Positions 8,509-36,872 are shown, counted from the first letter of the stretch. The stretch: DNA of 64,000 nucleotides from Methanomassiliicoccaceae archaeon (GCA_040776945.1 JAXGZN010000001.1:192001-256000); one strand, 5' to 3'. The notes: a model not told the origin generated them from the letters alone. Numbers and translations are program-made.

Positions 8509-8598
8509 ATCCGTCCACGTTGCTACCTTCCCATCCATTGAAAAAGGTTGCCCAGTCCAAGCATAGATTTTAAACCCATATGGGCATGCCTTAGGCCG

Positions 8599-20214: not shown

Positions 20215-20763
20215 TCAAAGCGATCTTCCCACTGACCTGGCCTCCTCCATGAGGTCCTTACGGTTTCGAGCTGCCGAGGGATCGTTCCCGGCCACCATGT
20301 GGATCCCCCCGACCTTAAGGAAGCCGTAGGTCGTCAGGAGCTTGTCGAAGTCCGTCAGGACGTTATTGAACGCCTGAACGTCCGGATTCCCCTGGCTGGT
20401 GATGACCACTGCCTTCTTTCCCTTAGGCAGCTTCACCGTGAAATCGGGGTTGAGGAACATATACAGCCGGTCGATGAACGTCCGGAACTGGCTGGTGAAC
20501 TCCCAGTAGTAGAGGGGGGACCCAAACACCACGGCGTCCGCCGTCTTCATCGATTCCATCAAGCGTGAGATATCATCATCCTGGTGGCAGCGGTCATGGG
20601 TCTTACAATACATGCAGGCTTGGCACCCTTTGCCATCCATCTGGTTGAGATAGTAGGTCTCGACCTGGTATCCGTTCTCCGATGCGGCGCTCAAAACCTC
20701 TCTGACCAAAGTGTCAGTGTTGCCGTCCTTGCGGGGGCTTGCTATGATGCCTATGGCCTTCAT
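20215..20763 (-). CDS. Iron-sulfur flavoprotein (Isf / NADPH-dependent FMN reductase family)
   Basis: SPRKDGNT, CQACMYC-x5-C cluster motif, GSPLY. Confidence 0.9.
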   Translation of the reverse strand: MKAIGIIASPRKDGNTDTLVREVLSAASENGYQVETYYLNQMDGKGCQACMYCKTHDRCHQDDDISRLMESMKTADAVVFGSPLYYWEFTSQFRTFIDRLYMFLNPDFTVKLPKGKKAVVITSQGNPDVQAFNNVLTDFDKLLTTYGFLKVGGIHMVAGNDPSAARNRKDLMEEARSVGRSL

Positions 20764-21757: not shown

Positions 21758-24301
21758 ATGAGCGAAGATGCGAAGGGTCCTGCAAACGGTAAAGAACAGG
21801 AATTGCAGGACTCGGCCCAGGTCCTTGAGACAAGGACCATGGATGAGGCGTTCGAGCGCCTCTCGAGCAGCGAGAGGGGCCTGAGCGATGAGGATGTTAA
21901 AGAACGGCGCGAAAAGTATGGGCCCAATGAGATAACGGAGAAAAGGGTCGGCCCGCTGCGCAAGTTCTTGGGATACTTCTGGGGCCCCATCCCGATCATG
22001 ATCATCGTGGCCGTCGTCCTCTCTGCGATCATCGGCCACTGGGACGATTTCTTCATCATCCTAGCACTTCTGTTCGTTAACGCCATAGTCGGATTCTATC
22101 AGGAGAACAAGGCGACCGACGCCATAGAGCTTCTGAAGGAACGTCTTGCACCGGAGGCCAGGGTCCTGCGGAATGGCGAGTGGAGCAATTTGCCGTCTCG
22201 GGAACTGGTCCCGGGGGACGTCGTCCGTGTGCGCCTGGGAGACATAGTTCCCGCCGACATCAAGCTCTTCCAGGGCGATTATCTGGAGGTCGACCAATCG
22301 GCACTGACCGGAGAGTCTCTGCCAGTGGACAAGAAGAACGGCAATGTGGCGTTCTCCGGCTCCATCATCCGCAAGGGAGAGATGAACGGCCTCGTGTTCG
22401 CCACCGGCCTTAACACCTTCTTCGGACGAACCGCCAAGCTGGTGGGAGAGGCCAAAACCATCAGCCATTTCCAGCGAAACGTGATGAAGATCGGGGACTA
22501 CCTCATCGTTCTTGACGTAATACTGGTCGCATTGGTCTTCATCATGGCCATCCTGCGCCACCAGAGCCTCTTGGAGACCTTGCAGTTCGCCCTGGTCCTG
22601 ACCATAGCCGCCATACCAGTGGCCCTGCCTGCGGTGCTCTCGGTGACCATGGCAGTAGGCGCCATCGCACTGGCGAAGAAGGAGGCGATTGTCAGCAGAC
22701 TGATCGCCATCGAGGAGATGGCGGGCATGGACATCCTATGCTCGGACAAGACCGGCACCATAACCCAGAACCTGCTGAGCGTGGCCAAGGTGATCACCTA
22801 TGGAGACACCTCCGAGGCCGAGGTCCTGACCGAGGCCGCACTTGCTTCCAGGACCGAGGACGAGGACCCCATAGACAACGCCATAATAAAGAGGGCGGAG
22901 GACACCCAAGGGGTCAAAGAAAGTATGGCGGAATACAGGGTAACGGGCTTCACCCCCTTCGATCCGGTAATTAAGCACACCGAGGCCGTTTTGGAAGGGA
23001 AGGGGGGAGAGATCAAGGTGGCCAAGGGAGCTCCCCAGGCCATCTTGGAGATGTCGGCCAACAAGGGCCCCATAGGCGATAAGGTAAATAAGGACGTCCA
23101 AGACCTGGCTTCCCTCGGATACCGTGCCCTTGGTGTCGCGAGGGCAACGGACGGAAGATGGCAGTTCACGGGGCTCATCGGGCTCCACGACCCTCCTCGC
23201 GAGGATTCAAAAAGGACGATAAGTGCGGCCGAAAGGATGGGACTGGACGTCAAGATGGTCACCGGGGACCATACGGATATTGCCAAGGAGATAGCCAAGG
23301 AGGTCGACATGGATCCGAACATCCTTCCCGCGAGCTCCTTCATCGATGCTCCGGACGACAAGGCCGGGGACATGGCGGAAAGGGCCGATGGGTTCGCCGA
23401 GGTGTTCCCTGAGCATAAGTTCCGCATAGTCAAGCTTCTCCAGGACAGAGGCCATATAGTAGGAATGACCGGAGATGGGGTCAATGATGCCCCGGCCCTT
23501 AAGAAGGCGGACGCGGGGATCGCAGTGGAGGGATCCACGGACGCTGCTAAATCAGCGGCGGACATCGTGCTCACGCGTCCCGGCCTGAGCGTGATAGTCG
23601 ATGCCATCATCGAGAGCAGGAAGATATTCCAGCGGATGATCAACTATTCCATCTACCGCATCTCGGAGACCTTCCGGGTATTGATATTCGTCACCATTTC
23701 CATATTAATATTCCAATTTTACCCGATAACCGCATTGATGATCGTTCTTCTGGCATTGTTGAACGATCTTCCTATCCTTACCATAGCCTTCGACAACGTG
23801 CGATTCTCGGCCAAGCCGGAAAAATGGGACATGCGGATCATCATCCTGGTGGGTTCGTATCTCGGAGCGATAGGGGTGGCCCAATCATTGGTCATCATGT
23901 ATATTGGCCTTGAGGTCTTTCATCTGAACCTATCGGTGCTCCAATCCTACATCTACCTGGTGCTTTCCGTTGGCGGGCACCTGGTCCTCCTGGCCGCCCG
24001 TACTAAAGGCCCGTTCTGGTCGGTGAGACCCGCGCCCAGGCTCCTGTGGGCCATCATACTGACCCAGTTGACAGCGACCATACTCGTGCTCTTCGGAATA
24101 TTATTGCCTCAACTGGACCCTATCTACGTCGCGTTCATATGGGGCCAAGGGCTTCTTACCTTCCTCATTGTGGACTCCACCAAGGTCATGCTGTACAAGT
24201 ATCTGATCAAGAAGGGACTTGTAGGAAAAGGCATCTCGGACCCTGAGAGCATCGGCAAGGAAGGAAAAAGACCGGTCGCTGCCGATGTGGCTGAGCGATA
24301 G
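21758..24301 (+). CDS. P-type H+-exporting ATPase (type IIIA, PMA1-like)
   Basis: LTGES, IPVALP, CSDKTGT, KGAPQ, DPPR, TGDH, GDGVNDAPAL and LLND motifs. Confidence 0.95.
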   Translation: MSEDAKGPANGKEQELQDSAQVLETRTMDEAFERLSSSERGLSDEDVKERREKYGPNEITEKRVGPLRKFLGYFWGPIPIMIIVAVVLSAIIGHWDDFFIILALLFVNAIVGFYQENKATDAIELLKERLAPEARVLRNGEWSNLPSRELVPGDVVRVRLGDIVPADIKLFQGDYLEVDQSALTGESLPVDKKNGNVAFSGSIIRKGEMNGLVFATGLNTFFGRTAKLVGEAKTISHFQRNVMKIGDYLIVLDVILVALVFIMAILRHQSLLETLQFALVLTIAAIPVALPAVLSVTMAVGAIALAKKEAIVSRLIAIEEMAGMDILCSDKTGTITQNLLSVAKVITYGDTSEAEVLTEAALASRTEDEDPIDNAIIKRAEDTQGVKESMAEYRVTGFTPFDPVIKHTEAVLEGKGGEIKVAKGAPQAILEMSANKGPIGDKVNKDVQDLASLGYRALGVARATDGRWQFTGLIGLHDPPREDSKRTISAAERMGLDVKMVTGDHTDIAKEIAKEVDMDPNILPASSFIDAPDDKAGDMAERADGFAEVFPEHKFRIVKLLQDRGHIVGMTGDGVNDAPALKKADAGIAVEGSTDAAKSAADIVLTRPGLSVIVDAIIESRKIFQRMINYSIYRISETFRVLIFVTISILIFQFYPITALMIVLLALLNDLPILTIAFDNVRFSAKPEKWDMRIIILVGSYLGAIGVAQSLVIMYIGLEVFHLNLSVLQSYIYLVLSVGGHLVLLAARTKGPFWSVRPAPRLLWAIILTQLTATILVLFGILLPQLDPIYVAFIWGQGLLTFLIVDSTKVMLYKYLIKKGLVGKGISDPESIGKEGKRPVAADVAER

Positions 24302-24761
24302 TGCGGGGGAGCATCATCTCCTGCACGCCGCGACCTCTGGAACTGATGGAGAACTATGCGGTCCTGGCATGACAGCAGCATCTCGTGCTGGGCCTGCGCC
24401 CGCTTCTTCAAGAGCCGCAGATCCGATAGGGCTCTGGGCCCTGCCTGATCGGGACGACTTCCGTCAGGTGGTCTTGTAAAAACCATAGATAACTTTCATG
24501 CAGTGGCAGGTGTCCCATGGCCGTCGAGGATGGCGACCGTGCTCGGTCGGCCGTTGAAGGGCGGTACATGCCGTCATGCCTTAAGGCAAGAAGATGGAGG
24601 ACAGGCCTTCCCTTGCGTTTCGTGGACCGTTGAGCGAGGACGGAACAGGGAGCCAGGGAACACAGGTGCGTTACCGTGCCGTGAGCCAGGCGATGGATGT
24701 TTTGAGCCATCATTCCCATTGTGGAGCGTAAAGATGATGCGGGCATCGGTCCTGGACCGGA

Positions 24762-25565
24762 TCAACCGAACGGACCGCAATTGCTCCGCCAATTGCGAAA
24801 GATGTACCATATTCCAGAGATTATGTCGCTGCCGCTTGAATGGCCATACTTGGTGAGATCATAAGCGGCTTGACCGATCTTTCCGTTCCCCAACATCGCA
24901 TCCCCCAACCTCTTCACCGGAAGCGCGTACTGGCCGTCGAGGGCATCGAGCAGAATGGTCCGGGAAAGAGGATTTTCATAGGCCTCCACTATACCGCGGA
25001 CCTCCTGGACGCTTGACCCTACCAGTTCGTGGGCGAGGATGATGCCTAAGATGAAGTCGTCCCCCGAGGGCGTGAGCCCATAGCCCAGACCAAGCATCCT
25101 TCGGGCAAGCTCGATCGGCCCGGGGGACCCCTCGAGCAACGACGCTTGCTTCCTGGCCATCCACCCCTCCATCCCCTCCGGCGCTTCGGCCCGGCCAAGG
25201 TGCATGAGGAGCGGGGTCGTCATGCTCATCCTCTTCTTAACGATGAATGGGGTCAAGGAACGGAGGCATGGGACCATATCGAGCGGGCCGGACGGTTCCA
25301 GGGCCAGGTCCTTGGGCTCGCAGAGCTGCACGGAGTAGTTCCCCGCGTCAAGAACACCGTCGACCATGGCGGCGTGGTCCGAGCGCGGCATCTCCTCGAT
25401 CTCCACCACTATGCTCGAAGGGGCCGCGGTCCCCTCTTTATTGGTCAGGGTGACCGTTCTGTTGCCGAAGAGGAAGGCGCACGCTTTCTTAGAGCGGAGC
25501 AGCATCGTCCCCTTGCCCGATCTGGCGACCCGGTTGCCGCAGAACATCGAGCCGAGCGTCAACAT
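24762..25565 (-). CDS. DUF2877 / YlbF(AllH)-like protein
   Basis: LGLGYGLTPSGDDF and GHSSGSD motifs; last gene of the fdrA operon. Confidence 0.85.
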   Translation of the reverse strand: MLTLGSMFCGNRVARSGKGTMLLRSKKACAFLFGNRTVTLTNKEGTAAPSSIVVEIEEMPRSDHAAMVDGVLDAGNYSVQLCEPKDLALEPSGPLDMVPCLRSLTPFIVKKRMSMTTPLLMHLGRAEAPEGMEGWMARKQASLLEGSPGPIELARRMLGLGYGLTPSGDDFILGIILAHELVGSSVQEVRGIVEAYENPLSRTILLDALDGQYALPVKRLGDAMLGNGKIGQAAYDLTKYGHSSGSDIISGIWYIFRNWRSNCGPFG

Positions 25566-25567
25566 AG

Positions 25568-26848
25568 CTACAGTCCGTATCGCGAAGCGTACCTCCTCAG
25601 GGCATCATTGAACGCTTCCATCGGCGCGTGCGATATGCCGCCCCCGATCTGTCCGACCCCCGGTTTCTTGGCAGCGATCCCGGTGTTCGACTTGGGCAGG
25701 AGGCCGGTGCGGTTCACCTTGATCATGTCTATGCCAAGGGGGCAGCCCTTGAAGTTCAGCGACGGGATCATGAAGTCCCTGTTAACCCCGTGACAGACCT
25801 TGTAACCGTCCATGGTCATCTGGACGGCATCCTGGACCGTGCCGCCAACGAACCTCGTCACGGCGGGCGACGCGGCCGACGCATATCCGCCCAGCCCCAT
25901 GACCTCCATGATCGCGCTGTCCCCGAAATCCCCTGCGGCGTCGGATTCGCTGAAACCTGGGAAGTACAGTCCTTTGGGGATCACCACGGGCCCCACGAAC
26001 CATTCTCCTTTCAGGCCGCTGATGCCGATGCCGTAACCGACGCCGTTCCTCGTCAACCTGGTGACTATGGTGCTGTTCTCGATCCCGTCAGCGGGATCTG
26101 CCAGTGCCTTCATGGCAGGCATGGCGAGGTTCAGGTAGTACTGCTCCCTGTCGCTGATGAACTTGATGACCTCCTTGCCTTCCGGCTGGTCCAGCAGGCC
26201 ATCTAGGACTGTCCTCAAGAACAACAGGCTCGAGGCATCATATCGCTCGTGGAGCTCATCACCCATCACCAGGCCCTTGGAGACGATGACCTTCAGATCG
26301 ATGGGGCTCTTCTTGACCACCTTCCTCAGCGCCGGGGCCAGCACGTCGTTCATCCATTGCAACCGCTTCAGCACCTCTTCGTCCCAGCCGCCGAAGCGAA
26401 GGATCTTGCCCCTTCCCTCGTGAAGGTTGCAGTAGGCTCGATTGCCAAAGGTCGGGTTCTCCACCACGCATACCATTTTCCCAGGCGTCACTATCCCGGC
26501 CATGGGCGCCACCGTGGAGTGCTCGTGACAAGGGGAGAACTCCAGCTCCCCGCTCCTGGCCAGCTCGTCCGCTTGCTTCAGGTCCTTGGCCTTGCCTTCG
26601 AACACCAGCGATCCCTGTACGGCAGCCTGCATGGGTGCGATCATCTTCTCATATTCAATGGGAGGGCCGGCGTGGAGGACAGTGTTGTCCTTCATTCCGG
26701 GGATCACGTTCTTGGCAAGGTCGAAATCGACCAGCATGGCGCGGCCCTTGTTCATCCTGTCCACTGCCTTGTCGTTCGCTTCGGCGATCCTGTCCATCAC
26801 CGCGGTAGAGGGCCGCTCCTTGTGGGCCGTTGTGGATGAGGGGGTCAT
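25568..26848 (-). CDS. DUF1116 / YlbE(AllG)-like protein
   Basis: LHAGPP, PCH...VAPMAG, GDELH, RNGV.YG and NTGIA....G.GQIGGG motifs. Confidence 0.88.
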   Translation of the reverse strand: MTPSSTTAHKERPSTAVMDRIAEANDKAVDRMNKGRAMLVDFDLAKNVIPGMKDNTVLHAGPPIEYEKMIAPMQAAVQGSLVFEGKAKDLKQADELARSGELEFSPCHEHSTVAPMAGIVTPGKMVCVVENPTFGNRAYCNLHEGRGKILRFGGWDEEVLKRLQWMNDVLAPALRKVVKKSPIDLKVIVSKGLVMGDELHERYDASSLLFLRTVLDGLLDQPEGKEVIKFISDREQYYLNLAMPAMKALADPADGIENSTIVTRLTRNGVGYGIGISGLKGEWFVGPVVIPKGLYFPGFSESDAAGDFGDSAIMEVMGLGGYASAASPAVTRFVGGTVQDAVQMTMDGYKVCHGVNRDFMIPSLNFKGCPLGIDMIKVNRTGLLPKSNTGIAAKKPGVGQIGGGISHAPMEAFNDALRRYASRYGL

Positions 26849-27000
26849 CCTCCCACCGCCTGCAAAATGCGGGAGATGTCCTCCGGCACTTCGATCGGGG
26901 GCGTCCAGTCCACCTTCTCCACATCCATCTCCTGGCTGACCATCTCGCGGAGGAACCATTCCGAACCTACACAGAAGACCTTTAACTGACCTTTCATCAT
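26845..27000 (-). CDS. Small stand-alone FdrA C-terminal-domain protein (51 aa)
   Basis: Manual translation MMKGQLKVFCVGSEWFLREMVSQEMDVEKVDWTPPIEVPEDISRILQAVGG; ATGA overlaps with both neighbours; VDW.PP motif like the FdrA C-terminus. Confidence 0.75.
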   Translation of the reverse strand: MMKGQLKVFCVGSEWFLREMVSQEMDVEKVDWTPPIEVPEDISRILQAVGG

Positions 27001-28454
27001 CCAACATCACCCATGACCTTCGCGGCATACGCCGCAGCATTGCCAGATGATCCGAACACTACCACTCCGAGGTCCTTCAGCTCATCGGCTATCCTATCAT
27101 AGTCTTGCTTATCCGCCTTCGTTCCGCATATCGAGGCTATCGCCAGAGGGCCCCTCTGCAGACCGTCCAGCCCGGCCAACGGATCATCGGCGCTTCCCCA
27201 GCCGAGCATGATCTCGAACAGCAGCACCGCGACATCGTCCCTCCTGCTCTCCTTGACCAGCCACGAGTTCCTGGCCTGGGGATCGATCATCGGATGGGGC
27301 CTGCCTTTGACATACTCCTCGGCACCGGTATCGATGCACACGTTGAGGTTATCGTAATCATCCGGGAGGGACAGTTCCTTCTTTGTCGGGGCGTTCGAGT
27401 ATACCTTGATGCCCGCCTTCCCAATGATGGCCTGGGCCTGATAACATAGGCTGCCACCGACGAAGAGCCCTCGAAGATACTTACGGCCGTCCAGCTTGGC
27501 GCTCTCCTTGGGTGCCGCTTCCCGCAGCTCGGCCTTGCCCATCGCTTTCAGGATGTGGTCCACCCCTCGATCGATGGAGCCGGTCGAAAGGATATCGCCC
27601 TCTATGTGCTCCTCGCTCTCTCCCAGGGAGATGAACGCCGCCTTGCGTCCTTTGATCATGCTCAATATCTCATCTTTGACCCTCTTGTCCGGTTTCTTGC
27701 CTATTATGATGAGCCCATCGGAGACGCCAAGGCTTTCAATGGCCATCTTGGTCATCGTCCCGTCGATCTCCTCGGTCATGTCCTTGCTGCCCACCCCAAT
27801 GGCATATGAAGTCCCCAGGCCGCCCCTGTCCAGAAGGACCGTGGTCTCCTGCATTCCCGATCCCGAAGAGCCGATGACCGCGACATTTCCCGTCTTGACC
27901 GCATTGGCGAAGCCGAGGCCTTTGCCATCGATTATCACCGTGCCGGCGTCCGGGCCCATCACGAGAAGCCCTTTTTCCTTCCCTTTCCTCTTCAGGCTCA
28001 TCTCCACCTCGGTCGGCACGTTGCTGCTGAAGATGTGGAGATGGGCGCCCGCATCGAGACCGTCGTTCGCCAGCTTTTCGACGTACTGCCCCGGCGTGGA
28101 TATGAACAGGATCGGAAGGTCGCCCTTCCGTATCGTGTCCTTGAGCGTTCCCATGGTGGTGATCTCGACCTGGGGGCCTGACGTCTTCTCCCTGTCCATG
28201 AGGTCGATCGCGCTCTTGATGGCCGCCTCGGCGTGCTCATCATTGTCGGCCTCTATGGCGATCAATATGGATGAGGGCTTGACATTGGAAGGAGGGGAGA
28301 ACCCGGCGTTCCTCAGGAGGTCCAGGTTCTCCTTGGTCGCGGTGACCATGCCTGCCTTCTTCACTCCTATTTCCTTCTCCACGTCCCTGCTTACACCCAT
28401 GAGGAGGACCGAGTCCATGTATCGGTTCTCTATTTCGTGATAGCGTGTGCTCAT
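26997..28454 (-). CDS. fdrA: FdrA(AllF)-like acyl-CoA synthetase-fold protein
   Basis: YMDSVLLM, IFSSNV, MGPDAGT, GLGFAN, GLFVGGSLC and GRPHPMIDP motifs. Confidence 0.88.
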   Translation of the reverse strand: MSTRYHEIENRYMDSVLLMGVSRDVEKEIGVKKAGMVTATKENLDLLRNAGFSPPSNVKPSSILIAIEADNDEHAEAAIKSAIDLMDREKTSGPQVEITTMGTLKDTIRKGDLPILFISTPGQYVEKLANDGLDAGAHLHIFSSNVPTEVEMSLKRKGKEKGLLVMGPDAGTVIIDGKGLGFANAVKTGNVAVIGSSGSGMQETTVLLDRGGLGTSYAIGVGSKDMTEEIDGTMTKMAIESLGVSDGLIIIGKKPDKRVKDEILSMIKGRKAAFISLGESEEHIEGDILSTGSIDRGVDHILKAMGKAELREAAPKESAKLDGRKYLRGLFVGGSLCYQAQAIIGKAGIKVYSNAPTKKELSLPDDYDNLNVCIDTGAEEYVKGRPHPMIDPQARNSWLVKESRRDDVAVLLFEIMLGWGSADDPLAGLDGLQRGPLAIASICGTKADKQDYDRIADELKDLGVVVFGSSGNAAAYAAKVMGDVG

Positions 28455-28463
28455 CCCATCACC

Positions 28464-29066
28464 TCAACCCGTCTTGGCCTTCGCCGGCTCACCGGGCACC
28501 TCGACCTCCTTGGGGAAGGAGAGGTATATCTGAAGATAGCCCCAGATCGGTCCGAGCAGGTTCATGAGCAGACCGCTGAACCAGGCCACGACGACCTCTG
28601 CACCTCCGAAGCCGGGCATCAGGCCGAACAGGCCGAAGTAGGTGGCAAAGAAGGTGGCGAAGCCATAGAAGTGGGCCGGCGTGTACGAAAGCGTCTTGAT
28701 GTACTTCGAACCCCAGAGGATCGGCTGGTTCACCAGGAAGATTACAAGGACATCAAAGGCCAGCATCCACACCAGATTATCTGCCAGCGGCGGGTTGCCG
28801 AAGGTCATCAATACGCCAGCGATAAAACCCCAGAACGACCCCCATATGATGCATGGATAGATCTTCTTATAGACCTCCTTGGTCTTGCCCGGTCCTCCTC
28901 CTCCCGCCGCGAAATATCCGGCCCAGGTTATGAAGACGCCCCATCCGCCGAAGTTGAGGGCGAATGGAGCGGCGAGCACCCCCGGGATCGACATGAAGAC
29001 CGTCAATGCTGCAAGGATCCCGCCGGTGAACGCCGTCGGGACCCTCTCCTTCGTCACTTTGGCCAT
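28464..29066 (-). CDS. DUF1097-like membrane protein
   Basis: About 6 TMs, W..FI.WA.YFA.G and P..F.GFA..F motifs. Confidence 0.7.
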   Translation of the reverse strand: MAKVTKERVPTAFTGGILAALTVFMSIPGVLAAPFALNFGGWGVFITWAGYFAAGGGGPGKTKEVYKKIYPCIIWGSFWGFIAGVLMTFGNPPLADNLVWMLAFDVLVIFLVNQPILWGSKYIKTLSYTPAHFYGFATFFATYFGLFGLMPGFGGAEVVVAWFSGLLMNLLGPIWGYLQIYLSFPKEVEVPGEPAKAKTG

Positions 29067-29083
29067 AAGGCATCACACGCCCC

Positions 29084-30388
29084 TCAGGCTCGAAGCACCT
29101 CAGGCTGCCTGATCTCCATTGGCTCATTGGGATCGATGCGCCCCCCGCTCCATTTCATGACCTCGGGGTGCTCGCTGCGGTAGATCATCTTCCCTCTCTT
29201 GATGATGTAGCGGCGGATCGGGGGATCTATGAAGATGTCCCCCACGTGCTTGGAGCCGAGGACGACGAGGTCCGCGTTCTTGCCCTCCTCTAGCCCGTAG
29301 GTGTCCTCTATGTGCAACACCTTGGCCGGGTTCCTCGTGATCATGTCCAACAGCATCCTCTGATCGGCAGGGGTGCCGAGGTAGCAGGCGTGGGCATAAA
29401 GATTGCCGATCAGCAGCAGGTCCCCGTTCCCGAACGGCGTGAACCCGTTCTGGATGTTGTTGGTGGAGAAGCAATGGTTGACGCCCTTCTCTATGAACGG
29501 CTTTGGACTGAGGAGCCCTCTGCGCTTCGCCTTCTCATCGTTCCTTCCGCTCAGGAACATGTCCGTCGCTGCCAAGGTTATCAGGTTGATCTTGGCCTCC
29601 GCCATGCGCTTGGCGGTGTCGTCACGCACCTTCGGGTCCACGCTGGAGAGCGTGGTCATATGCCCGACCGAAACCCTTCCTTGGTACCCGTTCTCGATGG
29701 TCTGCTTGATTATGTAGTCGATGGAACGATAGCGCATGTCGTCGACATTATCCCCAAAGTCGGCATGGAACGAGCAATCCTTATCATACTTCTTCGCCAG
29801 TTCGAAGATCGCATCCACGTGTTGCTTTGTCCCTTCGAAATCATTCTCGTTGTAGGGGCATCCAGCCACCGAGTCCGCGCCCTTCTTCAAGGCCTGGTCC
29901 AGGAAATCATAGGCGGTTGGAGCCTTGACTATGCCTTCCTGAGCGAAGGCACAGACGTGCATGTCCACGTATTCCTTGTAGTCCTCCTTCAGCCTCATCA
30001 TCGCATCGAAGCCGACCAGCCTTGCGAGCGGGTCCGTATCGGGCTGCGCCTTGATGATGGTCGAGCCATGGCGAAGGCACATTTCCAGCACCTGCTTGGA
30101 ACGTTCATAGACCTCTTCGTCCTGGAAGGCCTTCTTCAGCTCCCCAGTGGTCTTGATCGCCCCCATGAGGGTGCCCTCCTTGTTCGGCCTGACCTTTTCC
30201 AGCAGAGCCTTGTCGATGTGTATGTGGCTCTCGATGAACGTTGGAACCACCACATCACCGGCGAGGTCGACCTCGATATCGCCTCTTAGACCGGTCCCTA
30301 TTTCCGATATCTTACCCTTGTCGATCGCAATGTCGGTCAAAGGCCTTTCATCATCGATCCTCGCGTTTTTCAATACCAGTTCAGGCAT
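29084..30388 (-). CDS. Cytosine-deaminase-family metal-dependent amidohydrolase, atypical active site
   Basis: ESHIHIDKA, FAQEG, HADF, GHMTT, TNNIQNGFTPFG and G.NADLV motifs. Confidence 0.88.
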   Translation of the reverse strand: MPELVLKNARIDDERPLTDIAIDKGKISEIGTGLRGDIEVDLAGDVVVPTFIESHIHIDKALLEKVRPNKEGTLMGAIKTTGELKKAFQDEEVYERSKQVLEMCLRHGSTIIKAQPDTDPLARLVGFDAMMRLKEDYKEYVDMHVCAFAQEGIVKAPTAYDFLDQALKKGADSVAGCPYNENDFEGTKQHVDAIFELAKKYDKDCSFHADFGDNVDDMRYRSIDYIIKQTIENGYQGRVSVGHMTTLSSVDPKVRDDTAKRMAEAKINLITLAATDMFLSGRNDEKAKRRGLLSPKPFIEKGVNHCFSTNNIQNGFTPFGNGDLLLIGNLYAHACYLGTPADQRMLLDMITRNPAKVLHIEDTYGLEEGKNADLVVLGSKHVGDIFIDPPIRRYIIKRGKMIYRSEHPEVMKWSGGRIDPNEPMEIRQPEVLRA

Positions 30389-30538
30389 TCGTAACACCCT
30401 TGGTCTCAGGTGTCCAGGCACGATATTTAGCCTTTAACCGCAAAATGTGTGGCCTATCCCGACGAACCCATATTGCAAGGACGGTCCCAGAGCGGTCTCG
30501 CGCAGGATGAAATACGAGGAGGGTGCAAAGGGAGGGGC

Positions 30539-31492
30539 ATGGACGATGCGGAAAGGGGGAGCGTGCTCGTCGCTCTCGGCGGAAATGCGATCCTCAAGCA
30601 TACCGAGCAGGGCACGGCGGAGGAACAGAGACACAACATCGGCGTCACCGCAACATGGCTGGTCGAGATGATCAAGCACGGTTTCAGAATTGCCATCACT
30701 CACGGCAACGGTCCTCAGGTGGGAGATATCCTGCTCAAGAACGAGATCGCCAAGGGAACGTTGCCGCCAATGCCCATCGATGTCTGCGGAGCGGAGAGCC
30801 AGGGCCTTATCGGCTACTTCCTGCAGCAGACGATGCACAACGAGCTGGTCCGGCAAGGGTTGAACCTGCCATTGGCGACCGTCCTCAGCCAATGCATCGT
30901 CGGGGAGGACGATCCCGCGCTAAAGGACCCTTCCAAGCCTATCGGGCCGTTCTATACTGTAATGGAGGCATCGAAGCTTAGGGAGGAACGGGGGTGGACA
31001 ATGATAGATGACAGTGGAAGAGGTTGGCGTCGTGTGGTGCCCTCTCCCAAGCCCGTGTCCATCGTCGAGGGGCAGGTCATCAAGAGACTGTATGATGAAG
31101 GCTTCATCGTCATCGCCTGCGGCGGGGGCGGCGTGCCCGTGGTGCGGGAAGAGGGCGACCGCCTCAAGGGCATAGAGGCCGTTATCGATAAGGACCATAC
31201 CGCGTCGGCCCTCGCCAGGCTGATCGGGGCCGATACGCTGCTTATCCTGACGGACGTTGAGGGCGTCTACGCCCATTTCGGGAAGAAGGAGCAATCACTG
31301 ATCGGGGAGCTGACGGCGGATAAGGCCAGGGATATCATCGTCAATGGCAGCCTGCCCTCCGGGAGCATGAGGCCGAAGGTCGAGGCTGCCGTGCAGTTCG
31401 TGGAGGGAGGCGGGAAGAGGGCGATAATCACCTGCCTGGAATGTGCCCTTCTTGGACTGGAGGGCAAGAGGGGGACAACCATAATTAAGTGA
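30539..31492 (+). CDS. arcC: Carbamate kinase (copy 2, cluster-associated)
   Basis: ALGGNA, HGNGPQVG, PSKPIGP, RRVVPSP, EAVIDKD and GSMRPK motifs; divergent from the amidohydrolase-fdrA operon. Confidence 0.93.
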   Translation: MDDAERGSVLVALGGNAILKHTEQGTAEEQRHNIGVTATWLVEMIKHGFRIAITHGNGPQVGDILLKNEIAKGTLPPMPIDVCGAESQGLIGYFLQQTMHNELVRQGLNLPLATVLSQCIVGEDDPALKDPSKPIGPFYTVMEASKLREERGWTMIDDSGRGWRRVVPSPKPVSIVEGQVIKRLYDEGFIVIACGGGGVPVVREEGDRLKGIEAVIDKDHTASALARLIGADTLLILTDVEGVYAHFGKKEQSLIGELTADKARDIIVNGSLPSGSMRPKVEAAVQFVEGGGKRAIITCLECALLGLEGKRGTTIIK

Positions 31493-31609
31493 GCCTCAGG
31501 GCATGGACGTAGACGGTCGTTAGCTTCTGCCAGGCCCATGTTCTGGGGCCAAAGGCCGGCCGTTCGATGTGCCATTGCTCCTTGATCCCTCCGTCCGTAG
31601 CTCCTGCCC

Positions 31610-32890
31610 CTATTTTGAGCCCATTTCCGCCGCGACCTTTCCTTTGGGCCGCGGACGGTGATACTTCCTGAAGAAGAGCATCGTGAGCCCGGAAATTACC
31701 TGAAATGTACCGAGCATCACCAGTCCCAGAGAGTATGTTCCGGTCAAGGCCACGGCCAGGCCCACCAGGACCGTCCCGAACACGCCTGAGCCGTTCGAGA
31801 CGCCGTTGAGAAAACCTGTAGCGCCCCCGATCTGTTCTTCTGGAGCGATGTCCTGCAGCAGGGTGAACTGGTTCGGCTGAATGATGGAGATGAAGAAGAA
31901 CACCATGGTCATGAAAAATATGATCACGATGAAATCGGCGATGGGGATGACCAGAAAGATGAACGCTCCGGAAAGGATGCCGAATATCATGGCGATCTCC
32001 ACCAATCTGCCGGTTCGGGTGTCCAGAGTAGAGCCGACGATCAGACCGAGCACACCGCCGACATAGGGGATCGACGCGGCCCAGATCAGGTCCTGGTCAG
32101 TAAAGCCCTTCGCCATTATCAGGTAGGTAGGCAGCCACAGCGAAAGGCCCCACCAGGTCAGATTGGTCGTTATATCGGAAAGGACCAATATGTGGATGCC
32201 CTTGAGCTTGATCGTCTTCTTGACGCTATCGATCGATCGTCTCATCTGGCCTCGGAGATCGACGCTCTTGCGGGGGTAATTTCCCGTTGGAGTGTCCGCC
32301 AGCTTGAAGTACAATATCACCACCAGGATGAACCCTGCGATCCCCACCGAATAGAATGCGAACGTCCAGTTGGTTACGAGGATGAGCGGGACGATCAGGA
32401 GCGCGGCGAGCAGATTGGATATATACAGTGCGCTGAAGTACGCCGAGTTCACTCTTGCCCTGATCGACGGCCTGAACCATTCCTGGGTGATCTTGCTGTC
32501 GCTCGGAAATAGAGGCCCTTCCGCCAACCCTAGTATCAATCTGAACAGAATGAACAGGCCGAGGATGAGACCGACGACCCCCGTGAAGAACGTGATCAAG
32601 GACCAGATCGACATTATGCCTATGAGCGCCCTCCGTGGCCCGACGCGATCGATCATCGGCGCCAGGAAGATGTTCGAGAAACCGTAGCCGACGAGGAACA
32701 TGCCGAGAAGTATCCCGCCGTACAGCCCGTTCTCGTAGCTGTTCCAGCCGTACGCATCGCTTATGAACGGCAGCGCTACCGAGATGTTCACTCGGGTCAG
32801 ATAGCCGACCAGGGTGCTCAGGAACAACAGTACGGCAATGGTCAGGCCTCTGCCCTTGATCTTGCTGAGCTGTGTCCCTTGGTCGTTCAT
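31610..32890 (-). CDS. MFS transporter (anion:cation symporter-like)
   Basis: About 12 TMs, R.NISVA, DRVGPRR, R..LG.AEG..FP and WF...R motifs. Confidence 0.9.
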   Translation of the reverse strand: MNDQGTQLSKIKGRGLTIAVLLFLSTLVGYLTRVNISVALPFISDAYGWNSYENGLYGGILLGMFLVGYGFSNIFLAPMIDRVGPRRALIGIMSIWSLITFFTGVVGLILGLFILFRLILGLAEGPLFPSDSKITQEWFRPSIRARVNSAYFSALYISNLLAALLIVPLILVTNWTFAFYSVGIAGFILVVILYFKLADTPTGNYPRKSVDLRGQMRRSIDSVKKTIKLKGIHILVLSDITTNLTWWGLSLWLPTYLIMAKGFTDQDLIWAASIPYVGGVLGLIVGSTLDTRTGRLVEIAMIFGILSGAFIFLVIPIADFIVIIFFMTMVFFFISIIQPNQFTLLQDIAPEEQIGGATGFLNGVSNGSGVFGTVLVGLAVALTGTYSLGLVMLGTFQVISGLTMLFFRKYHRPRPKGKVAAEMGSK

Positions 32891-33093
32891 TCGGTAGTAC
32901 CAACTCCAACCGATGGTTGAAATGCTTTTCGCGCCGCTAGCGGCTCTTCCGCTACCTCGGCCTCGCTGACCTGGAAAAGATCGAGCGCTTCTCCCGCGCT
33001 GTCACTGGCCGCCATGCTCGCTTGCTGCTCCCCGAACGGAGAGGCGGTGAAAGCAGGGTCTTGAATTATCAGGCCGGTCGCCGTGGCCGCCGC

Positions 33094-33483
33094 TCAGCTT
33101 CCGTCTGCCATCTCCCGGCAGACGCTCAAGCAGTCCCGGCGGACCTGGGCGCATGCCTTCATGGCCTGATCGTCGAAAGCGTCGCAGCTCTCGGCGCAGT
33201 TGTCGCAGACGTCCGCGCTCATCCTGCACGCTTGGTTCACGAGCTTGGAGCTGCGGAGCATGAGGTTCTCGCTCTGCTCGCATATGTCCGCGCGATCGCG
33301 CATAAGGCGGACATGCAATATCTCTGCGTGCTTGCCGCACATGTTCAGACAGTGGATCGTCGTCTCGGTGCATACGACACGGCACTCCTTGCAGGCGCCT
33401 ATGCAGCGGTTCACCACGTCGCTCCTTTCCAATATCACGGCCCTTGGCATAAAGCTGAAAAGCGCTTCGTCGCCCAAGGTCAA
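33094..33483 (-). CDS. Cys-rich four-helix-bundle copper-storage protein (Csp3/DUF326-like), possibly degenerate
   Basis: Repeated CxxxC/CxxC helices; several expected Cys appear as Arg/Ser; start uncertain. Confidence 0.7.
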   Translation of the reverse strand: MTLGDEALFSFMPRAVILERSDVVNRCIGACKECRVVCTETTIHCLNMCGKHAEILHVRLMRDRADICEQSENLMLRSSKLVNQACRMSADVCDNCAESCDAFDDQAMKACAQVRRDCLSVCREMADGS

Positions 33484-33486
33484 AGA

Positions 33487-33744
33487 TGATAGTTACCCGT
33501 TGTGTCGACCCCATCCAGTTGGCCGCCTTCACTGAGGAGCACGAGAATGCTCGAGACTAATGGCGTCTCTTGCCATATTCGATAACTTGCTCACGAGCAA
33601 CCAGGCGAGCGGGCGGTAGCTCCGAGGCTCGGGTCGTAAGAACATAGGGCCTACGTGAGGCCGACCATTTCTCACGCCTGGTCCTATCATCAGATGTTCG
33701 TTCTGTGTTGAGTTTCTCCACATGAAGAAAAGGGGTAACTATCA
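33487..33744. repeat. Inverted repeat pair TGATAGTTACCC / GGGTAACTATCA (MITE-like or IS-end remnant)
   Basis: Perfect 12-bp IR (14/15 when extended inward) at 33487-33498 and 33733-33744; no TSD seen. Confidence 0.5.
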
Positions 33745-33959: not shown

Positions 33960-34777
33960 TCTAGAGGCGATGCGAAAGCGAACTCGTTCGCTTTCTAGCA
34001 GCGTCGCTGCCGCACCGGACGACCGCCGACGGACGAGAGAGCGCTTCTCGTGGCGTCCCTGCTCCGGGAGCTTCTCGATCTGACGTTCCGCGAGACGGGG
34101 GGGCTTCCTGGCGGGGTTTAGCTCGTACTACTCGTTGGAGCGTGTTCCGGACCACTCCACGCTCTCTCGCAAGCTGTCGTCGAAGCGCTGGACGACGGTG
34201 TTAGAGCGGTTCATCCAGCATCTTGCCGACGAAACGCTGGAAGGCAAGGCGATGACCGCCGCCGATGCGAGCGGATAAAGTGGACGCAAGCGCGGATGGA
34301 GGAAAACGAAGCACGCTTGGCGGGCGAGGAGGGACTGGGTCAAGGTGCACGCGATGGTGGAAGTCGATGAGTTCCTCGTTCTTTCGTACTCACTTACGAG
34401 ATCGAAAGTGCACGACAGCCGCGAGTTCGCGAACGTCTGGAACAAGTTGCCGTCGAACGTTTCACCGACGCATTAGCTGGCCGTAACTGCCGCATGCCAT
34501 CAAGAAGAACTCTCGTCTCTTCGCGAAACCGTGTAGCTTCCATCAAAAATTGGTAATTTTCGCTCGACACTGGCCTAACCGGTTCAAGTCGCTGTACGCC
34601 AAGCGCGCGCACGCCGAGACGGCGTTCTCGATGACCTTCGAGCTATTCGAGCACCGATTGAAATGTCGAGCGAATAATAGTAAGAAAAACGAGGTTCAGG
34701 TGAAGCTCGCTCTGTTCGACCTGATCCAGCTGGTTATGAGGCCAGAGTTCTGATCGCGAGGGATATACAACAAGGCC
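33960..34777 (+). mobile_element. Degenerate IS5-family (IS903-like) transposase remnant with right end
   Basis: Fragments VPDHSTLSR, ADASG*, DWVKVH, HDS and YAKRAHAETAFS, broken by stops, a frameshift and a deletion; ends in CAACAAGGCC (reverse complement GGCCTTGTTG, IS903-like). Left boundary approximate. Confidence 0.8.
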
Positions 34778-34959
34778 GATAGTATTAATTTCTAGAGTAT
34801 GATAATGCTCGAACAGGAAGGAGAGGAACGAGAAGCGGGTCTTGATGGTATGTGATCACCAATATCGAGAGCAAGGACCACGCATACCTCTTGATGAACA
34901 GAGAGATGGAAAAGGCGAAGGCCTGGGGAAAGGGGCTGGCCAAGGCCTTGGAGAAGTAG
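34778..34959 (+). pseudogene. Internally deleted paralogue of the flavodoxin gene at 20887-21406 (promoter, 5' end and last ~31 codons)
   Basis: gatagtattaatttctagagtatgataatgct vs gatagctttaatttccagaaaacgataatgct; IESKDHAYLLMNREMEKAKAWGKGLAKALEK* vs VESKDHAYRLKNGEMEKARNWGKELARILTK*. Confidence 0.85.
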
Positions 34960-36546: not shown

Positions 36547-36799
36547 AGAGGTTTGTGATTGGTCTTGTACGCCATCACCTTCCTCCATTCCTTGTTGCAA
36601 CAGGGGCTCTGTCCCTCGATCCCCTCATAGTCGGGTCCAACCTGCCAAGGAAAGCGCGGGTAATCCCTCCTTCGGACTAATGGATGGGGAGAAGGTTGGC
36701 TTTGTTCTCTCGATCTACTCTAGAGACCACTCTTCGATCCATGCAAGGTGGAAGAATGGTTTTCATCATCTTCGAGAACACATCATAAGAATATTGTAG

Positions 36800-36872
36800 T
36801 GCTCCCGTCGGGATTTGAACCCGAGTCGAAGCCTCGAGAGGGCTTCATGATTGGCCACTACACTACGGGAGC
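36800..36872 (-). tRNA. tRNA-Glu(CUC)
   Basis: GCTCCCG acceptor, AAGCC-CTCTCGA-GGCTT anticodon arm, GGGTTCAAATCCC T-arm; TTTATA upstream. Confidence 0.96.

Follow-up and report, generated by a model that had tools for sequence, protein, structure and literature searches.

A probable degradation cluster for a urea-like nitrogen compound in a methanogenic archaeon, with AllFGH and carbamate kinase families and a CodA-like amidohydrolase that lacks the beta-8 Asp

The AllFGH system of Escherichia coli is among the described systems closest to the gene cluster reported here. The purified enzyme is reported to interconvert oxalurate and carbamoyl phosphate plus oxamate, with a Km for oxamate of 36.9 mM, and its genes form an operon with that of the carbamate kinase AllK (PMC11326118). 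The archaeal cluster shares three subunit families and an adjacent carbamate kinase with this E. coli oxamic (oxamate) transcarbamylase (Kim & Kim 2022, 2024; PMC9843812, PMC11326118), and by analogy it presumably follows the same logic, in which phosphorolysis of an N-carbamoyl amide yields carbamoyl phosphate and then ATP. The partner genes differ from those of E. coli; they encode an MFS permease, a DUF1097 protein and a CodA-like amidohydrolase whose beta-8 residue is Asn. Similar allFGHK clusters, likewise without upstream purine-degradation genes, are described in ammonia-oxidising archaea and comammox Nitrospira, where they are read as serving external ureide use and occur with biuH, a gatA-like amidase, purE and bmpA-nupABC (PMC12625717, 2025). 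The accessible portions of that report contain neither 'cytosine deaminase' nor 'codA' in the text or two supplementary files, and no DUF1097 in the text. The first-pass annotation of this locus had considered such a route to be undescribed in methylotrophic methanogens. For methanogens we found no such cluster in the published literature, but AllFGHK clusters in general are already described, given those of the nitrifiers. Catabolic transcarbamylase and carbamate kinase pathways that likewise give ATP and NH3 are associated, in lactic acid bacteria, with the ability to tolerate acid (PMC3282769). AllFGH is unrelated to those transcarbamylases, not having the ATCase/OTCase fold, and the substrate class is different.

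Older work, reportedly including that of Tigier and Grisolia in 1965, concerns the conversion of oxalurate or parabanate to carbamoyl phosphate by a stand-alone pathway that likewise has its own carbamate kinase. Streptococcus faecalis is said to catabolise oxalurate by a pathway that includes a carbamate kinase of its own, and parabanic acid reportedly induces oxamate transcarbamylase in one study; to our knowledge no genes were assigned. This pathway would correspond to clusters of Enterococcus species (loci L033, L037-L039, L048 and L053) that carry PucR, FdrA-AllG, ArcC, U450, AllH and an amidohydrolase of the same family as ours. The archaeal version has DUF1097 in place of U450, and no PucR.

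The window is a stretch of 64,000 nucleotides from a Methanomassiliicoccaceae archaeon (GCA_040776945.1 JAXGZN010000001.1:192001-256000), a methane-producing host, as had been supposed, with mcrA in its genome. The interval 24762-32890 holds a minus-strand operon that encodes, in order, the CodA-like amidohydrolase, DUF1097, FdrA, a 51-residue FdrA tail, AllG and AllH, and beside it the divergent carbamate kinase gene arcC2 and the MFS permease gene. Every gene named in the first-pass annotation was recovered at its position, and the scores of Pfam and NCBIfam profile matches were judged against curated family cut-offs (Table 1). The operon is tightly coupled, as that annotation also held: intergenic gaps measure 17, 9 and 2 nt, and start and stop codons overlap as ATGA at the FdrA/small ORF and small ORF/AllG junctions. 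All seven cluster genes are intact and translationally coupled, with family-invariant residues retained, and the GC content of the cluster is that of the genome. A/T-rich stretches (ATATTTAG and TTTAAC) lie in the region between the amidohydrolase gene and arcC2, which is presumed from its sequence to be a bidirectional promoter. For three of the genes the open frame is longer than the likely gene. Two further ORFs (24408-24746 and 33002-33532) look spurious because they match no family and have no homologue among 80 related loci.

Table 1. Positions of cluster and neighbouring features in the window.
Feature	Position	Strand	Length	Basis or match
Carbamate kinase ArcC1	7576-8520	-		48% identical to ArcC2
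P-type H+-ATPase	21758..24301	+		TIGR01647, 1020.4 bits (cut-off 615.5)
AllH (DUF2877)	24762..25565	-	267 aa	PF11392, 63.6 bits (cut-off 25)
AllG (DUF1116)	25568..26848 (ORF 25568-27040; likely start ATG 26848, or 26797)	-		PF06545, E 6.5e-76
FdrA C-terminal tail as separate gene	26845..27000	-	51 aa	Profile alignment to FdrA tails
FdrA (AllF), succinyl-CoA-synthetase alpha-like	26997..28454	-	485 aa	PF00549, PF02629
DUF1097 small membrane protein	28464..29066	-	200 aa	PF06496, 47.7 bits (gathering 24.6)
CodA/AtzC-like amidohydrolase	29084..30388 (open frame to 30421; likely start ATG 30388)	-	434 aa	PF07969, PF01979
Divergent intergenic region	30389..30538	.	150 bp	Between amidohydrolase and arcC2
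Carbamate kinase ArcC2 (AllK-like)	30539..31492 (ORF 30449-31492; likely start ATG 30539)	+		TIGR00746, 386 bits (cut-off 358.25)
MFS permease	31610..32890	-	426 aa	PF07690 (MFS_1), 148 bits

All three AllFGH subunit families are present, and AllG and AllH exceed their Pfam cut-offs. FdrA scores above the cut-off for Ligase_CoA (51.1 bits) and 0.5 bit short of it for CoA_binding (21.8 against 22.3); against the NCBIfam model 'FdrA' (NF004760) it reaches 275.7 bits, under the cut-off of 433, and spans profile positions 8-493 of 555. It is 32% identical to E. coli FdrA over 497 aa, and its His387 is kept in at least 95% of 32 FdrA sequences. Unlike the E. coli protein it is split, with the tail as a gene of its own. 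The small ORF matches no Pfam or NCBIfam family. When it was combined with nine archaeal copies in a profile, this aligned to bacterial FdrA over the ~45 residues of the C-terminal tail, at residues 512-554 of 555 in E. coli and 529-570 of 576 in L085, with E-values that are modest in a search against a six-sequence database. The ORF occurs in nine of the 13 archaeal loci at 41-63% identity. In Listeria grayi FdrA and AllG are fused and the profile also matches the linker of that fusion, which argues for one complex. AllG is 42.5% identical to E. coli YlbE over 414 aa and matches an uncharacterised protein of known structure (PDB 3clq, 376 bits); the first 64 codons of its 490-aa ORF are not AllG, and the copy in genome G043 is 424 aa long and 76% identical. 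AllH has 31% identity to E. coli YlbF over 106 aa of the C-terminal domain and 40% to the G043 copy.

ArcC2 is 43% identical to E. coli YbcF and is indeed, as first described, a second carbamate kinase beside ArcC1. It groups with the cluster-linked ArcC of a Methanoregulaceae metagenome-assembled genome (MAG; SH-aLRT 95), apart from ArcC1, and eight of the 13 archaeal loci carry an ArcC, mostly divergent from the amidohydrolase gene as here. Since the ArcC2 and AllG trees share a subclade comprising the window, G043 (locus L007) and the Methanoregulaceae locus L014, the kinase belongs to the unit. It may nevertheless have another partner, because the congener G037 has arcC2 and the MFS gene with neither amidohydrolase nor AllFGH; the G043 operon has no arcC within 10 kb.

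The amidohydrolase is of the same fold family as CodA and AtzC, mononuclear-type members of the amidohydrolase superfamily, which its family profile matches in the PDB with 293 and 280 bits, respectively. It reaches none of the NCBIfam cytosine-deaminase cut-offs, scoring 246.7 bits with the best model, NF005748 (cut-off 438), 209.9 with NF006685 (483) and 178.4 with NF005759 (403). Its description as an atypical deaminase is well founded at the active site. The metal ligands His61 and His63 (the HxH pair) and His214 of CodA are retained, as are the equivalents of Gln156 and His246, which together with Glu217 are catalytic residues of CodA; Asp313-Asp314, however, is replaced by Asn-Asn, and there is a three-residue insertion at the position of Glu217, where an Asp is aligned. 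The [ST]NN motif, with Asn for the beta-8 Asp, is found in 112 of the best 120 homologues, and neighbouring 'Amido2' paralogues in firmicute clusters keep the Asp. The beta-8 Asp is otherwise near-universal, and the protein here may catalyse poorly, may act other than by hydrolysis or may serve in binding.

The neighbourhood survey proposed with the first-pass annotation links this amidohydrolase to AllFGH in every one of the 13 loci from archaea and in 26 of the 67 from bacteria. The family is tied to AllFGH beyond mere adjacency; all three genomes tested with a 'stand-alone' U450-amidohydrolase pair have AllG elsewhere. AllG is absent from both Burkholderiales genomes tested that have the amidohydrolase with DUF1097, and in one of these the pair is flanked by gamma-glutamyltransferase (GGT) family genes. 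A membrane protein adjoins the amidohydrolase in 69 of 80 loci, as expected of an enzyme that takes the first step on a compound brought in from outside: DUF1097 lies directly downstream in archaea, Burkholderiales and Actinobacteria, and in firmicute clusters U450 is the single transporter.

The MFS permease may import the substrate or export a product. Among NCBIfam models it comes nearest to TIGR00893 (2A0114, D-galactonate transporter, anion:cation symporter family), whose cut-off of 395 it misses at 160 bits, and homologues lie beside the cluster in G043 (57% identity) and beside arcC2 in G037 (75%). The gene for the P-type H+-ATPase, of the plasma-membrane type, adjoins the cluster in the host genome, in G043 and in the Methanoregulaceae MAG, and congeners hold 67-73% identical copies with no cluster genes near. 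It is a possible accessory gene, and this proton pump may offer a parallel with the acid-tolerance pathways of lactic acid bacteria.

Unlike E. coli, the host has no allBCDE, allantoin permease or glyoxylate branch. A tblastn search of the 2.17-Mb genome with the E. coli proteins AllA, AllC, AllD, AllE, GlxK, Hyi and GlxR gave no match, a result that applies to homologues of these proteins and not to analogues such as PuuE or allantoicase. The only allB-like gene was rejected as an allantoinase, with 255 bits against a cut-off of 358 for that model and 326.7 against 279 for the dihydroorotase model TIGR00857. The earlier statement that a conventional allantoin route is absent thus agrees with these searches. 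Since carA and carB supply biosynthetic carbamoyl phosphate, biosynthesis does not depend on the cluster and the catabolic role first proposed for it fits. Metatranscriptome contigs from four runs match parts of the cluster with at least 99% identity, and the flanks at similar low depth; these are a weak sign of expression, to which DNA carry-over may contribute.

Within the order, three genomes out of 201 have AllG, and none of ten congeners does. The operon lies in a variable 16-kb interval beside tRNA-Glu, the content of which is wholly different in the complete genome G054. Its closest relatives come from two more genomes with mcrA, of which the Methanoregulaceae MAG is one, and horizontal acquisition is the best reading. 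Among archaeal loci long enough to be counted, the order amidohydrolase-DUF1097-FdrA-small ORF-AllG-AllH is kept in L007, L008 and L010-L015, and L016 ends at AllG. The six bacterial loci that were fully annotated have no allantoin genes; the module looks self-contained there, usually with a PucR regulator. In a quick IQ-TREE search with 39 rows, archaeal AllG forms a distinct clade of nine rows (support 100), separate from a clade of 17 rows in which E. coli AllG nests (SH-aLRT 100) among AllG proteins linked to the same amidohydrolase family. The first-pass annotation had favoured a substrate other than oxalurate. Nothing shows such a substrate, and the nesting of E. coli AllG tells against the idea, although the long stem between the two clades (0.88 changes per column) and their weak common node (support 82) mean that the archaeal substrate may differ from that of E. 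coli.

Taken together, these findings indicate that the cluster probably degrades a urea-like nitrogen compound taken up by the cell, with ammonia, carbon dioxide and one ATP as the products. We favour, with a probability of roughly 0.55, a self-contained and horizontally acquired module of import, hydrolysis, phosphorolysis and carbamate kinase that serves an oxalurate-type ureide. Given the gene identities, operon coupling, synteny, co-inheritance and active-site substitutions established here, we infer every catalytic step, and the substrate, as follows. A small ureide or imide would be imported; DUF1097 is the membrane protein with which the first enzyme is conservatively paired, and the MFS permease is a second candidate carrier or a product exporter. 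The Asn-variant amidohydrolase would carry out one hydrolytic step, converting the imported compound to an oxalurate-type N-acylurea, and its place upstream as a feeder falls a little short of even odds. The four-piece AllF/tail/AllG/AllH enzyme would convert the N-acylurea and phosphate to carbamoyl phosphate and an amide (oxamate), and ArcC2 would use carbamoyl phosphate and ADP to make ATP, NH3 and CO2; we regard it as likely that these two form a phosphorolytic pair that turns a carbamoyl group into ATP. Oxalurate itself is a tentative choice of donor, less likely than not. Conversion of parabanate to oxalurate is the leading guess for the amidohydrolase step, and yet parabanate is an unlikely import, as it is a product of urate oxidation and is reported to open spontaneously to oxalurate at neutral pH (PMC5703782), so that it is doubtful whether anoxic digesters supply it and whether an enzyme would be needed.

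The order of steps could be reversed, with oxalurate imported and used first by AllFGH and ArcC2, the amidohydrolase acting downstream on oxamate to give oxalate and NH3, and DUF1097 or the MFS permease exporting oxalate; the amidohydrolase would then recover the second nitrogen. We consider this unlikely, albeit the best of the alternatives. It would suit the position of E. coli AllG among amidohydrolase-linked proteins, and perhaps the predicted structure of DUF1097 (AF2, pLDDT 81), whose top PDB matches are ALMT organic-anion channels (Z 7.9, 6.6 and 6.0). Many hosts of GGT-type clusters are Oxalobacteraceae or Paraburkholderia, groups that include oxalate users. Oxalurate is also described as a fermentable energy source for streptococci (PMC3282769, PMC6022934). 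The GGT family, however, includes the oxamate amidohydrolase HpxW (PMC12625717), and in L061 and L008 a GGT-family gene and the amidohydrolase both lie inside or beside AllFGH, so that the amidohydrolase is unlikely to be an oxamate amidase. In firmicute clusters, moreover, the gene just upstream of the amidohydrolase is that of the only transporter, U450, a position in keeping with an enzyme that takes the first step. Nor do we know of any CodA-like enzyme that is a simple primary-amide hydrolase.

Scavenging of biuret, triuret or allophanate-type nitrogen, as proposed for ammonia-oxidising archaea, is less probable again. Here AllFGH would cleave allophanate or a similar carbamoyl-urea in place of oxalurate, and the precursor, deaminated by the amidohydrolase, would resemble a triazine or guanylurea. 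The biuret or triazine substrate suggested in the first-pass annotation has some backing from other archaeal loci, eight of 13 of which have an isochorismatase-like hydrolase and three an amidase-signature protein next to the cluster, but none from the host genome, which contains no isochorismatase-like match and a single amidase-signature match far from the cluster. Two Thaumarchaeota contigs have the amidohydrolase directly before AllG, AtzC scores nearly as well as CodA against the family profile, and biuH, the gatA-like amidase and allFGHK occur together in ammonia-oxidising archaea (PMC12625717). Against this, the isochorismatase matches to BiuH/RutB models are weak (55-70 bits, far under the BiuH cut-off of 370), the G043 locus has no such hydrolase, and no annotated locus has a cyanuric-acid hydrolase. 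It is improbable that the cluster is a passenger of its variable region with no current role or an anabolic maker of carbamoyl phosphate, as its absence from congeners, the differing G054 interval and the reported assay of E. coli AllFGH in the synthetic direction might suggest, in view of the intact and coupled genes, the genome-like GC content, the presence of carAB, the E. coli Km for oxamate given above (PMC11326118) and the recurrence of the same genome-wide DNA in metagenomes of sludge and digesters from five studies, where at least 98% of the words sampled were present.

Degradation of an imported oxalurate-type ureide thus remains the preferred reading. The gain from each molecule would be one ATP by substrate-level phosphorylation and one NH3 or more, independently of methanogenesis, and, if this is true, a methanogen would have a side route to nitrogen and ATP outside methanogenesis.

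ORF and family searches across 24762-32890 bore out every gene that the first-pass annotation had named there: a minus-strand operon for a CodA-like amidohydrolase, a DUF1097 membrane protein, FdrA, a 51-aa ORF, AllG and AllH, accompanied by a carbamate kinase (ArcC2) and an MFS permease. The operon is compact: three of its gaps measure just 17, 9 and 2 nt, and there are two ATGA start/stop overlaps, one joining FdrA to the small ORF and the other joining the small ORF to AllG, and AllG read from the ATG at 26848 has approximately the length of its closest homologue (424 aa). ArcC2 is divergent from the amidohydrolase, the likely starts of the two genes leaving a 150-bp intergenic region with A/T-rich boxes, and the MFS gene is convergent on ArcC2. 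Two additional frames, orf112 (24408-24746) and orf176 (33002-33532), were rejected as cluster genes, having no family, no homologue in 80 related loci and an off-frame-like composition. No NCBIfam names were found for DUF1097, AllG, AllH or the 51-aa ORF.

Coordinates of the cluster genes and of related features (positions are those of the window unless a locus or contig is named)
Feature	Coordinates	Strand	Remarks
CodA-like amidohydrolase	ORF 29084-30421, likely start ATG 30388	-	first gene of operon
DUF1097 membrane protein	28464-29066	-	above Pfam cut-off
FdrA	26997-28454	-	ligase domain above Pfam cut-off; 32% identity to E. coli FdrA
51-aa ORF	26845-27000	-	between FdrA and AllG
AllG/DUF1116	25568-26848, open frame to 27040	-	6.5e-76; 42.5% identity to E. 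coli YlbE
AllH/DUF2877	24762-25565	-	above Pfam cut-off; 31% identity to YlbF, C-terminal 106 residues
ArcC2 carbamate kinase	ORF 30449-31492, likely start ATG 30539	+	386 bits vs curated 358; 43% identity to YbcF
MFS permease	31610-32890	-	MFS_1 above Pfam cut-off
ArcC1 carbamate kinase	7576-8520	-	315 aa; 48% identity to ArcC2
H+ P-type ATPase	21758-24301	+	plasma-membrane type (TIGR01647, 1020 bits)
P-type ATPase copies	L007 7259-9778; L014 16677-19154
Repeated ~0.8-kb stretch	33962-34789		copies at 65-73% identity at C2:330830-331680 and in congeners
arcC2-MFS pair, locus L090	G037:C43, 2548-4944		78% and 75% identity
Different AllFGH cluster, locus L006	G035:C26, 2117-10680		AllG 38% identical
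GGT-type loci	L022 8246-13726		and 16 further bacterial loci (L019-L032, L036, L059, L074, L086)
U450 membrane protein	L056 8584-9945; L084 8592-9977; L044 8607-9968		and ~40 other loci

The 51-aa ORF is kept in nine of the 13 archaeal loci, at 41-63% identity. Its profile aligns with the last ~45 residues of bacterial FdrA (512-554 of 555 in E. coli, 529-570 of 576 in the bacterial locus L085) and also matches the linker of a Listeria grayi FdrA-AllG fusion (996 aa; L084 3807-6797); such a fusion is apparently also present in several Enterococcus loci. The ORF is a genuine gene, and archaeal AllFGH is accordingly a four-piece version of the enzyme. The SCS-alpha-like fold and the conserved His387 of FdrA would be compatible with a mechanism in which an activated acyl donor gives rise to an acyl phosphate. 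The cluster is AllFGH plus carbamate kinase of known type, with new partners and a split subunit.

With a profile of 14 members of the amidohydrolase family, E. coli cytosine deaminase gives 293 bits and AtzC 280 bits. Compared to CodA, the family keeps the HxH motif, the equivalents of His214 and His246, and Gln156, but Asp313-Asp314 are replaced by Asn-Asn and three residues are inserted at the position of Glu217; for the functional roles of these residues we take those in the CodA literature to apply. The window's protein reaches none of the NCBIfam cytosine-deaminase cut-offs, and an ESM Atlas look-up returned nothing beyond generic 'amidohydrolase' and 'cytosine deaminase' clusters. Its earlier description as an atypical deaminase is a fair label, with deamination itself putative. 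When the 120 best database homologues were collected independently of the [ST]NN motif, 112 of them proved to carry it, and the paralogous amidohydrolases in firmicute clusters retain Asp. Loss of the beta-8 Asp leaves room for unexpected chemistry.

A pattern scan using one genome per species recovered at least 546 relatives, and the best 80 loci were examined with HMMs built from the seed genes; one of the two scan patterns was the NN motif, and the locus set is therefore unfit for counting that motif. Among these best 80 of at least 546 loci, a membrane-protein gene directly flanks the amidohydrolase in 69, DUF1097 lying downstream of it in archaea, Burkholderiales and Actinobacteria and an unnamed protein (U450) upstream of it elsewhere. 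FdrA or AllG shares the locus in all 13 archaeal and 26 of the 67 bacterial loci of this set, genes of the gamma-glutamyltransferase (GGT) family are found instead in 17 bacterial loci, and 24 have neither. AllG is encoded elsewhere in all three 'neither' genomes tested for it; it is absent from both Burkholderiales genomes tested, those of Herminiimonas (GGT-flanked) and Paraburkholderia L040 (counted under 'neither').

The firmicute gene order is PucR-AllH-FdrA-AllG-ArcC-U450-Amido, sometimes with further amidohydrolases after, and many archaeal loci add an isochorismatase-like hydrolase (8/13), some an amidase-signature protein (3/13). No allantoin genes occur in six fully annotated bacterial loci. 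No riboswitch pointing to a ligand was found in the window, where only three tRNAs were detected, and none of relevance in seven bacterial loci. U450 is ~450 aa long with ~12 helices and matches no Pfam or NCBIfam family. In Firmicutes, Wohlfahrtiimonas and others it is invariably the gene immediately before the amidohydrolase on the upstream side, and it is a candidate substrate carrier. The best structural matches of the DUF1097 AlphaFold model (pLDDT 81) are plant ALMT organic-anion channels, aligned over their membrane domain (Z 7.9, 6.6 and 6.0), even the top match (rmsd 5.6, 170 aligned) being under the tool's trust level for helical bundles.

In Herminiimonas and its relatives the typical arrangement is GGT-Amido-DUF1097-GGT, with one or two GGT genes, and in this version hydrolysis seems to take the place of phosphorolysis. 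Scores do not single out the GGT neighbours as specific orthologues of HpxW, the known oxamate amidohydrolase: the Herminiimonas protein scores 294 bits against the 'cephalosporin acylase' 2nlz, 256 bits against a Thermoplasma GGT-related protein and 186 bits against 5hft, which we take to be HpxW. As for the transcarbamylase, YlbE of the E. coli oxalurate enzyme nests (support 100) in a 17-sequence AllG clade whose other members, every one tied to this amidohydrolase family, come from Methylobacteriaceae, Enterococcus, Listeria, Erysipelothrix and others. Such enzymes, at least the bacterial ones, are therefore no separate lineage from the oxalurate enzyme. The archaeal AllG proteins form a long-stemmed clade adjoining that of YlbE.

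The host genome (2.17 Mb in two contigs, 99.8% complete, with the window at C1:192001-256000) encodes McrA, and the host is therefore a methanogen, as had been claimed. It also carries both carA and carB, so that biosynthetic carbamoyl phosphate is already supplied, and an anabolic role for the cluster was rejected on this ground. Nor was a conventional allantoin route found elsewhere in the genome with the E. coli-type enzymes as queries: tblastn with E. coli AllA, AllC, AllD, AllE, GlxK, Hyi and GlxR gave zero matches, and the single AllB-like gene, just beyond the window, is accepted by the dihydroorotase model but not by the allantoinase one. Ad hoc HMMs made from related-cluster genes found no isochorismatase-like hydrolase, GGT, U450, second amidohydrolase or PucR in the host genome, and neither an isochorismatase-like hydrolase nor an amidase-signature protein accompanies the cluster here; the host's version is the minimal one. 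The window's other carbamate kinase, ArcC1, has no adjacent transcarbamylase and neighbours a GTPase and a zinc-ribbon protein.

Within the order, three of 201 sampled genomes have AllG (host counted), and none of the ten other genomes of the genus does. The DNA from AllH to the amidohydrolase (24760-30450) is unmatched in these ten congeners, and the left flank matches at 79-83%. The FMN-reductase gene of window 20215-20763 and the tRNA-Glu of 36799-36872 are neighbours in the complete genome G054 too, where they enclose 14 kb of unrelated DNA, which identifies the window's ~20.8-36.8 kb as a variable region beside a tRNA gene. GC content is not deviant. One congener (G037) has arcC2 and the MFS gene only, lacking the amidohydrolase and AllFGH, a pair that may be left over from the cluster or may work with another enzyme. 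For the repeated stretch at 33962-34789, a protein family, an RNA family and a pyrrolysine read-through frame were all looked for and none was found; pyrrolysine read-through genes at 33.5-36.8 kb were dismissed, no long frame being seen.

Of the full copies, the closest belongs to G043 (locus L007), a Methanomassiliicoccales MAG from a different family, with identities of 76% for AllG, 75.5% for the amidohydrolase, 63% for FdrA, 64% for DUF1097, 57% for the MFS permease and 40% for AllH. Those of L014, a Methanoregulaceae MAG, and of L008, an unclassified archaeon, come next. The window groups with its closest relatives in both AllG and ArcC trees (SH-aLRT 95-100), and its AllG falls, by a quick tree search, in a nine-sequence archaeal clade (support 100) that is otherwise Thermoplasmata. 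The mcrA gene is also present in G043 and the Methanoregulaceae genome, and absent from two Thermoplasmata hosts tested. The cluster has been acquired horizontally by this methanogen, and the simplest reading is that it has been transferred among archaea, methanogens of two different phyla included. A different AllFGH cluster occurs in an mcrA-bearing genome of the same order (L006), built around a Bmp/PnrA-type ABC transporter and without the amidohydrolase; no carbamate kinase was seen in its 19-kb stretch.

Each of the three genomes of the closest subclade that have mcrA carries a P-type ATPase gene within ~3 kb of the cluster, and the arrangement differs in all three. Its candidacy as a strict island gene is weakened by copies 67-73% identical in three congeners with no cluster genes nearby. 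It is a possibility that carbamate-kinase ATP drives proton extrusion by this enzyme.

At least 98% of the sampled words of the stretch are present in bioreactor, activated sludge and anaerobic digester metagenomes (14 entries from five studies); the assembly may itself come from any one of these. In four metatranscriptomic runs, contigs of at least 99% identity cover parts of the amidohydrolase, DUF1097, FdrA, AllG, arcC2, MFS and flanks, at a similar low depth on cluster and flanks. This is a weak hint that the cluster is transcribed, RNA-library contigs being unable to rank genes, DNA carry-over being possible and uncovered bins being uninformative.

From gene context we infer the following route. 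A small ureide would be imported via DUF1097 and/or the MFS permease, and the amidohydrolase would turn it in one step into an oxalurate-type N-acylurea. The complex of FdrA, its detached tail, AllG and AllH would convert this with phosphate to carbamoyl phosphate and an amide, and ArcC2 would then yield ATP, NH3 and CO2. We place the amidohydrolase upstream because it is coupled to a carrier gene, because firmicute clusters contain that single carrier only, because some clusters hold the amidohydrolase together with a GGT, the family of the known oxamate amidohydrolase, and because what comes after is AllFGH with ArcC in anaerobes and fermenters or, in aerobic Burkholderiales, hydrolases of the GGT family, apparently two alternative routes for disposing of one product. 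The interpretation given in the first-pass annotation is partly supported: its genes, its methanogen host and the missing allantoin route stand, and the deaminase chemistry is putative.

The published record touches this route at several points. AllFGH is described as oxamic transcarbamylase, sharing an operon with allK, in PMC11326118. Ammonia-oxidising archaea and comammox bacteria are stated to have AllFGHK with biuH and without upstream purine genes, and a CodA-like enzyme is unmentioned in the text and two supplementary files of that report (PMC12625717). Parabanic acid, stable as long as the pH is below 5, opens at neutral pH to give oxalurate (PMC5703782), and Burkholderia cenocepacia is recorded in PMC5491218 as using it as an NtrC-dependent nitrogen source; the NtrC regulon supplement of the latter contains no identifiable homologue of the cluster. 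Literature searches on DUF1116, DUF2877 or DUF1097 with carbamate kinase turned up nothing on methanogens, and those on Methanomassiliicoccales with carbamate kinase, judged by title, nothing on the topic.

Our fullest reading is an unlikely one, with a probability of roughly 15%. It holds that carbamate kinase, AllFGH, the Asn-variant CodA-like hydrolase and a membrane carrier dedicated to it form a widespread module for a ureide that has gone unrecognised in the environment, either parabanate or some other product of urate or guanine oxidation lying one step before oxalurate. Gene transfer would have carried one archaeal version from methanogens of one phylum to those of another, beside a proton-pumping P-type ATPase. 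That version would provide substrate-level ATP and ammonia without methanogenesis, the ATP being spent on pumping out protons to sustain membrane potential or pH homeostasis.

The comparison exposes a conserved unit of a membrane carrier and an amidohydrolase family lacking the beta-8 aspartate, which goes with AllFGH in archaea, Firmicutes and Actinobacteria and with GGT-family hydrolases in Burkholderiales. A 1986 study reportedly described an oxalurate catabolic pathway with a third carbamate kinase in S. faecalis, and the identity of the substrate would assign genes to the 'oxalurate/parabanate' fermentation of enterococci of the 1960s-80s. It would also reveal what feeds AllFGH in ammonia-oxidising archaea and others without purine catabolism, and define a new catalytic variant in the amidohydrolase superfamily. 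Methanogens of the host's order are not known to conserve energy other than by hydrogen-dependent methyl reduction; conversion of a ureide through carbamoyl phosphate to ATP would, if true, be a genuine if minor exception, and would give digesters a nitrogen route. The main interest is the widespread carrier-plus-amidohydrolase unit, whose substrate is directly testable, and, if the reading is true, the making of ATP by a methanogen outside methanogenesis.
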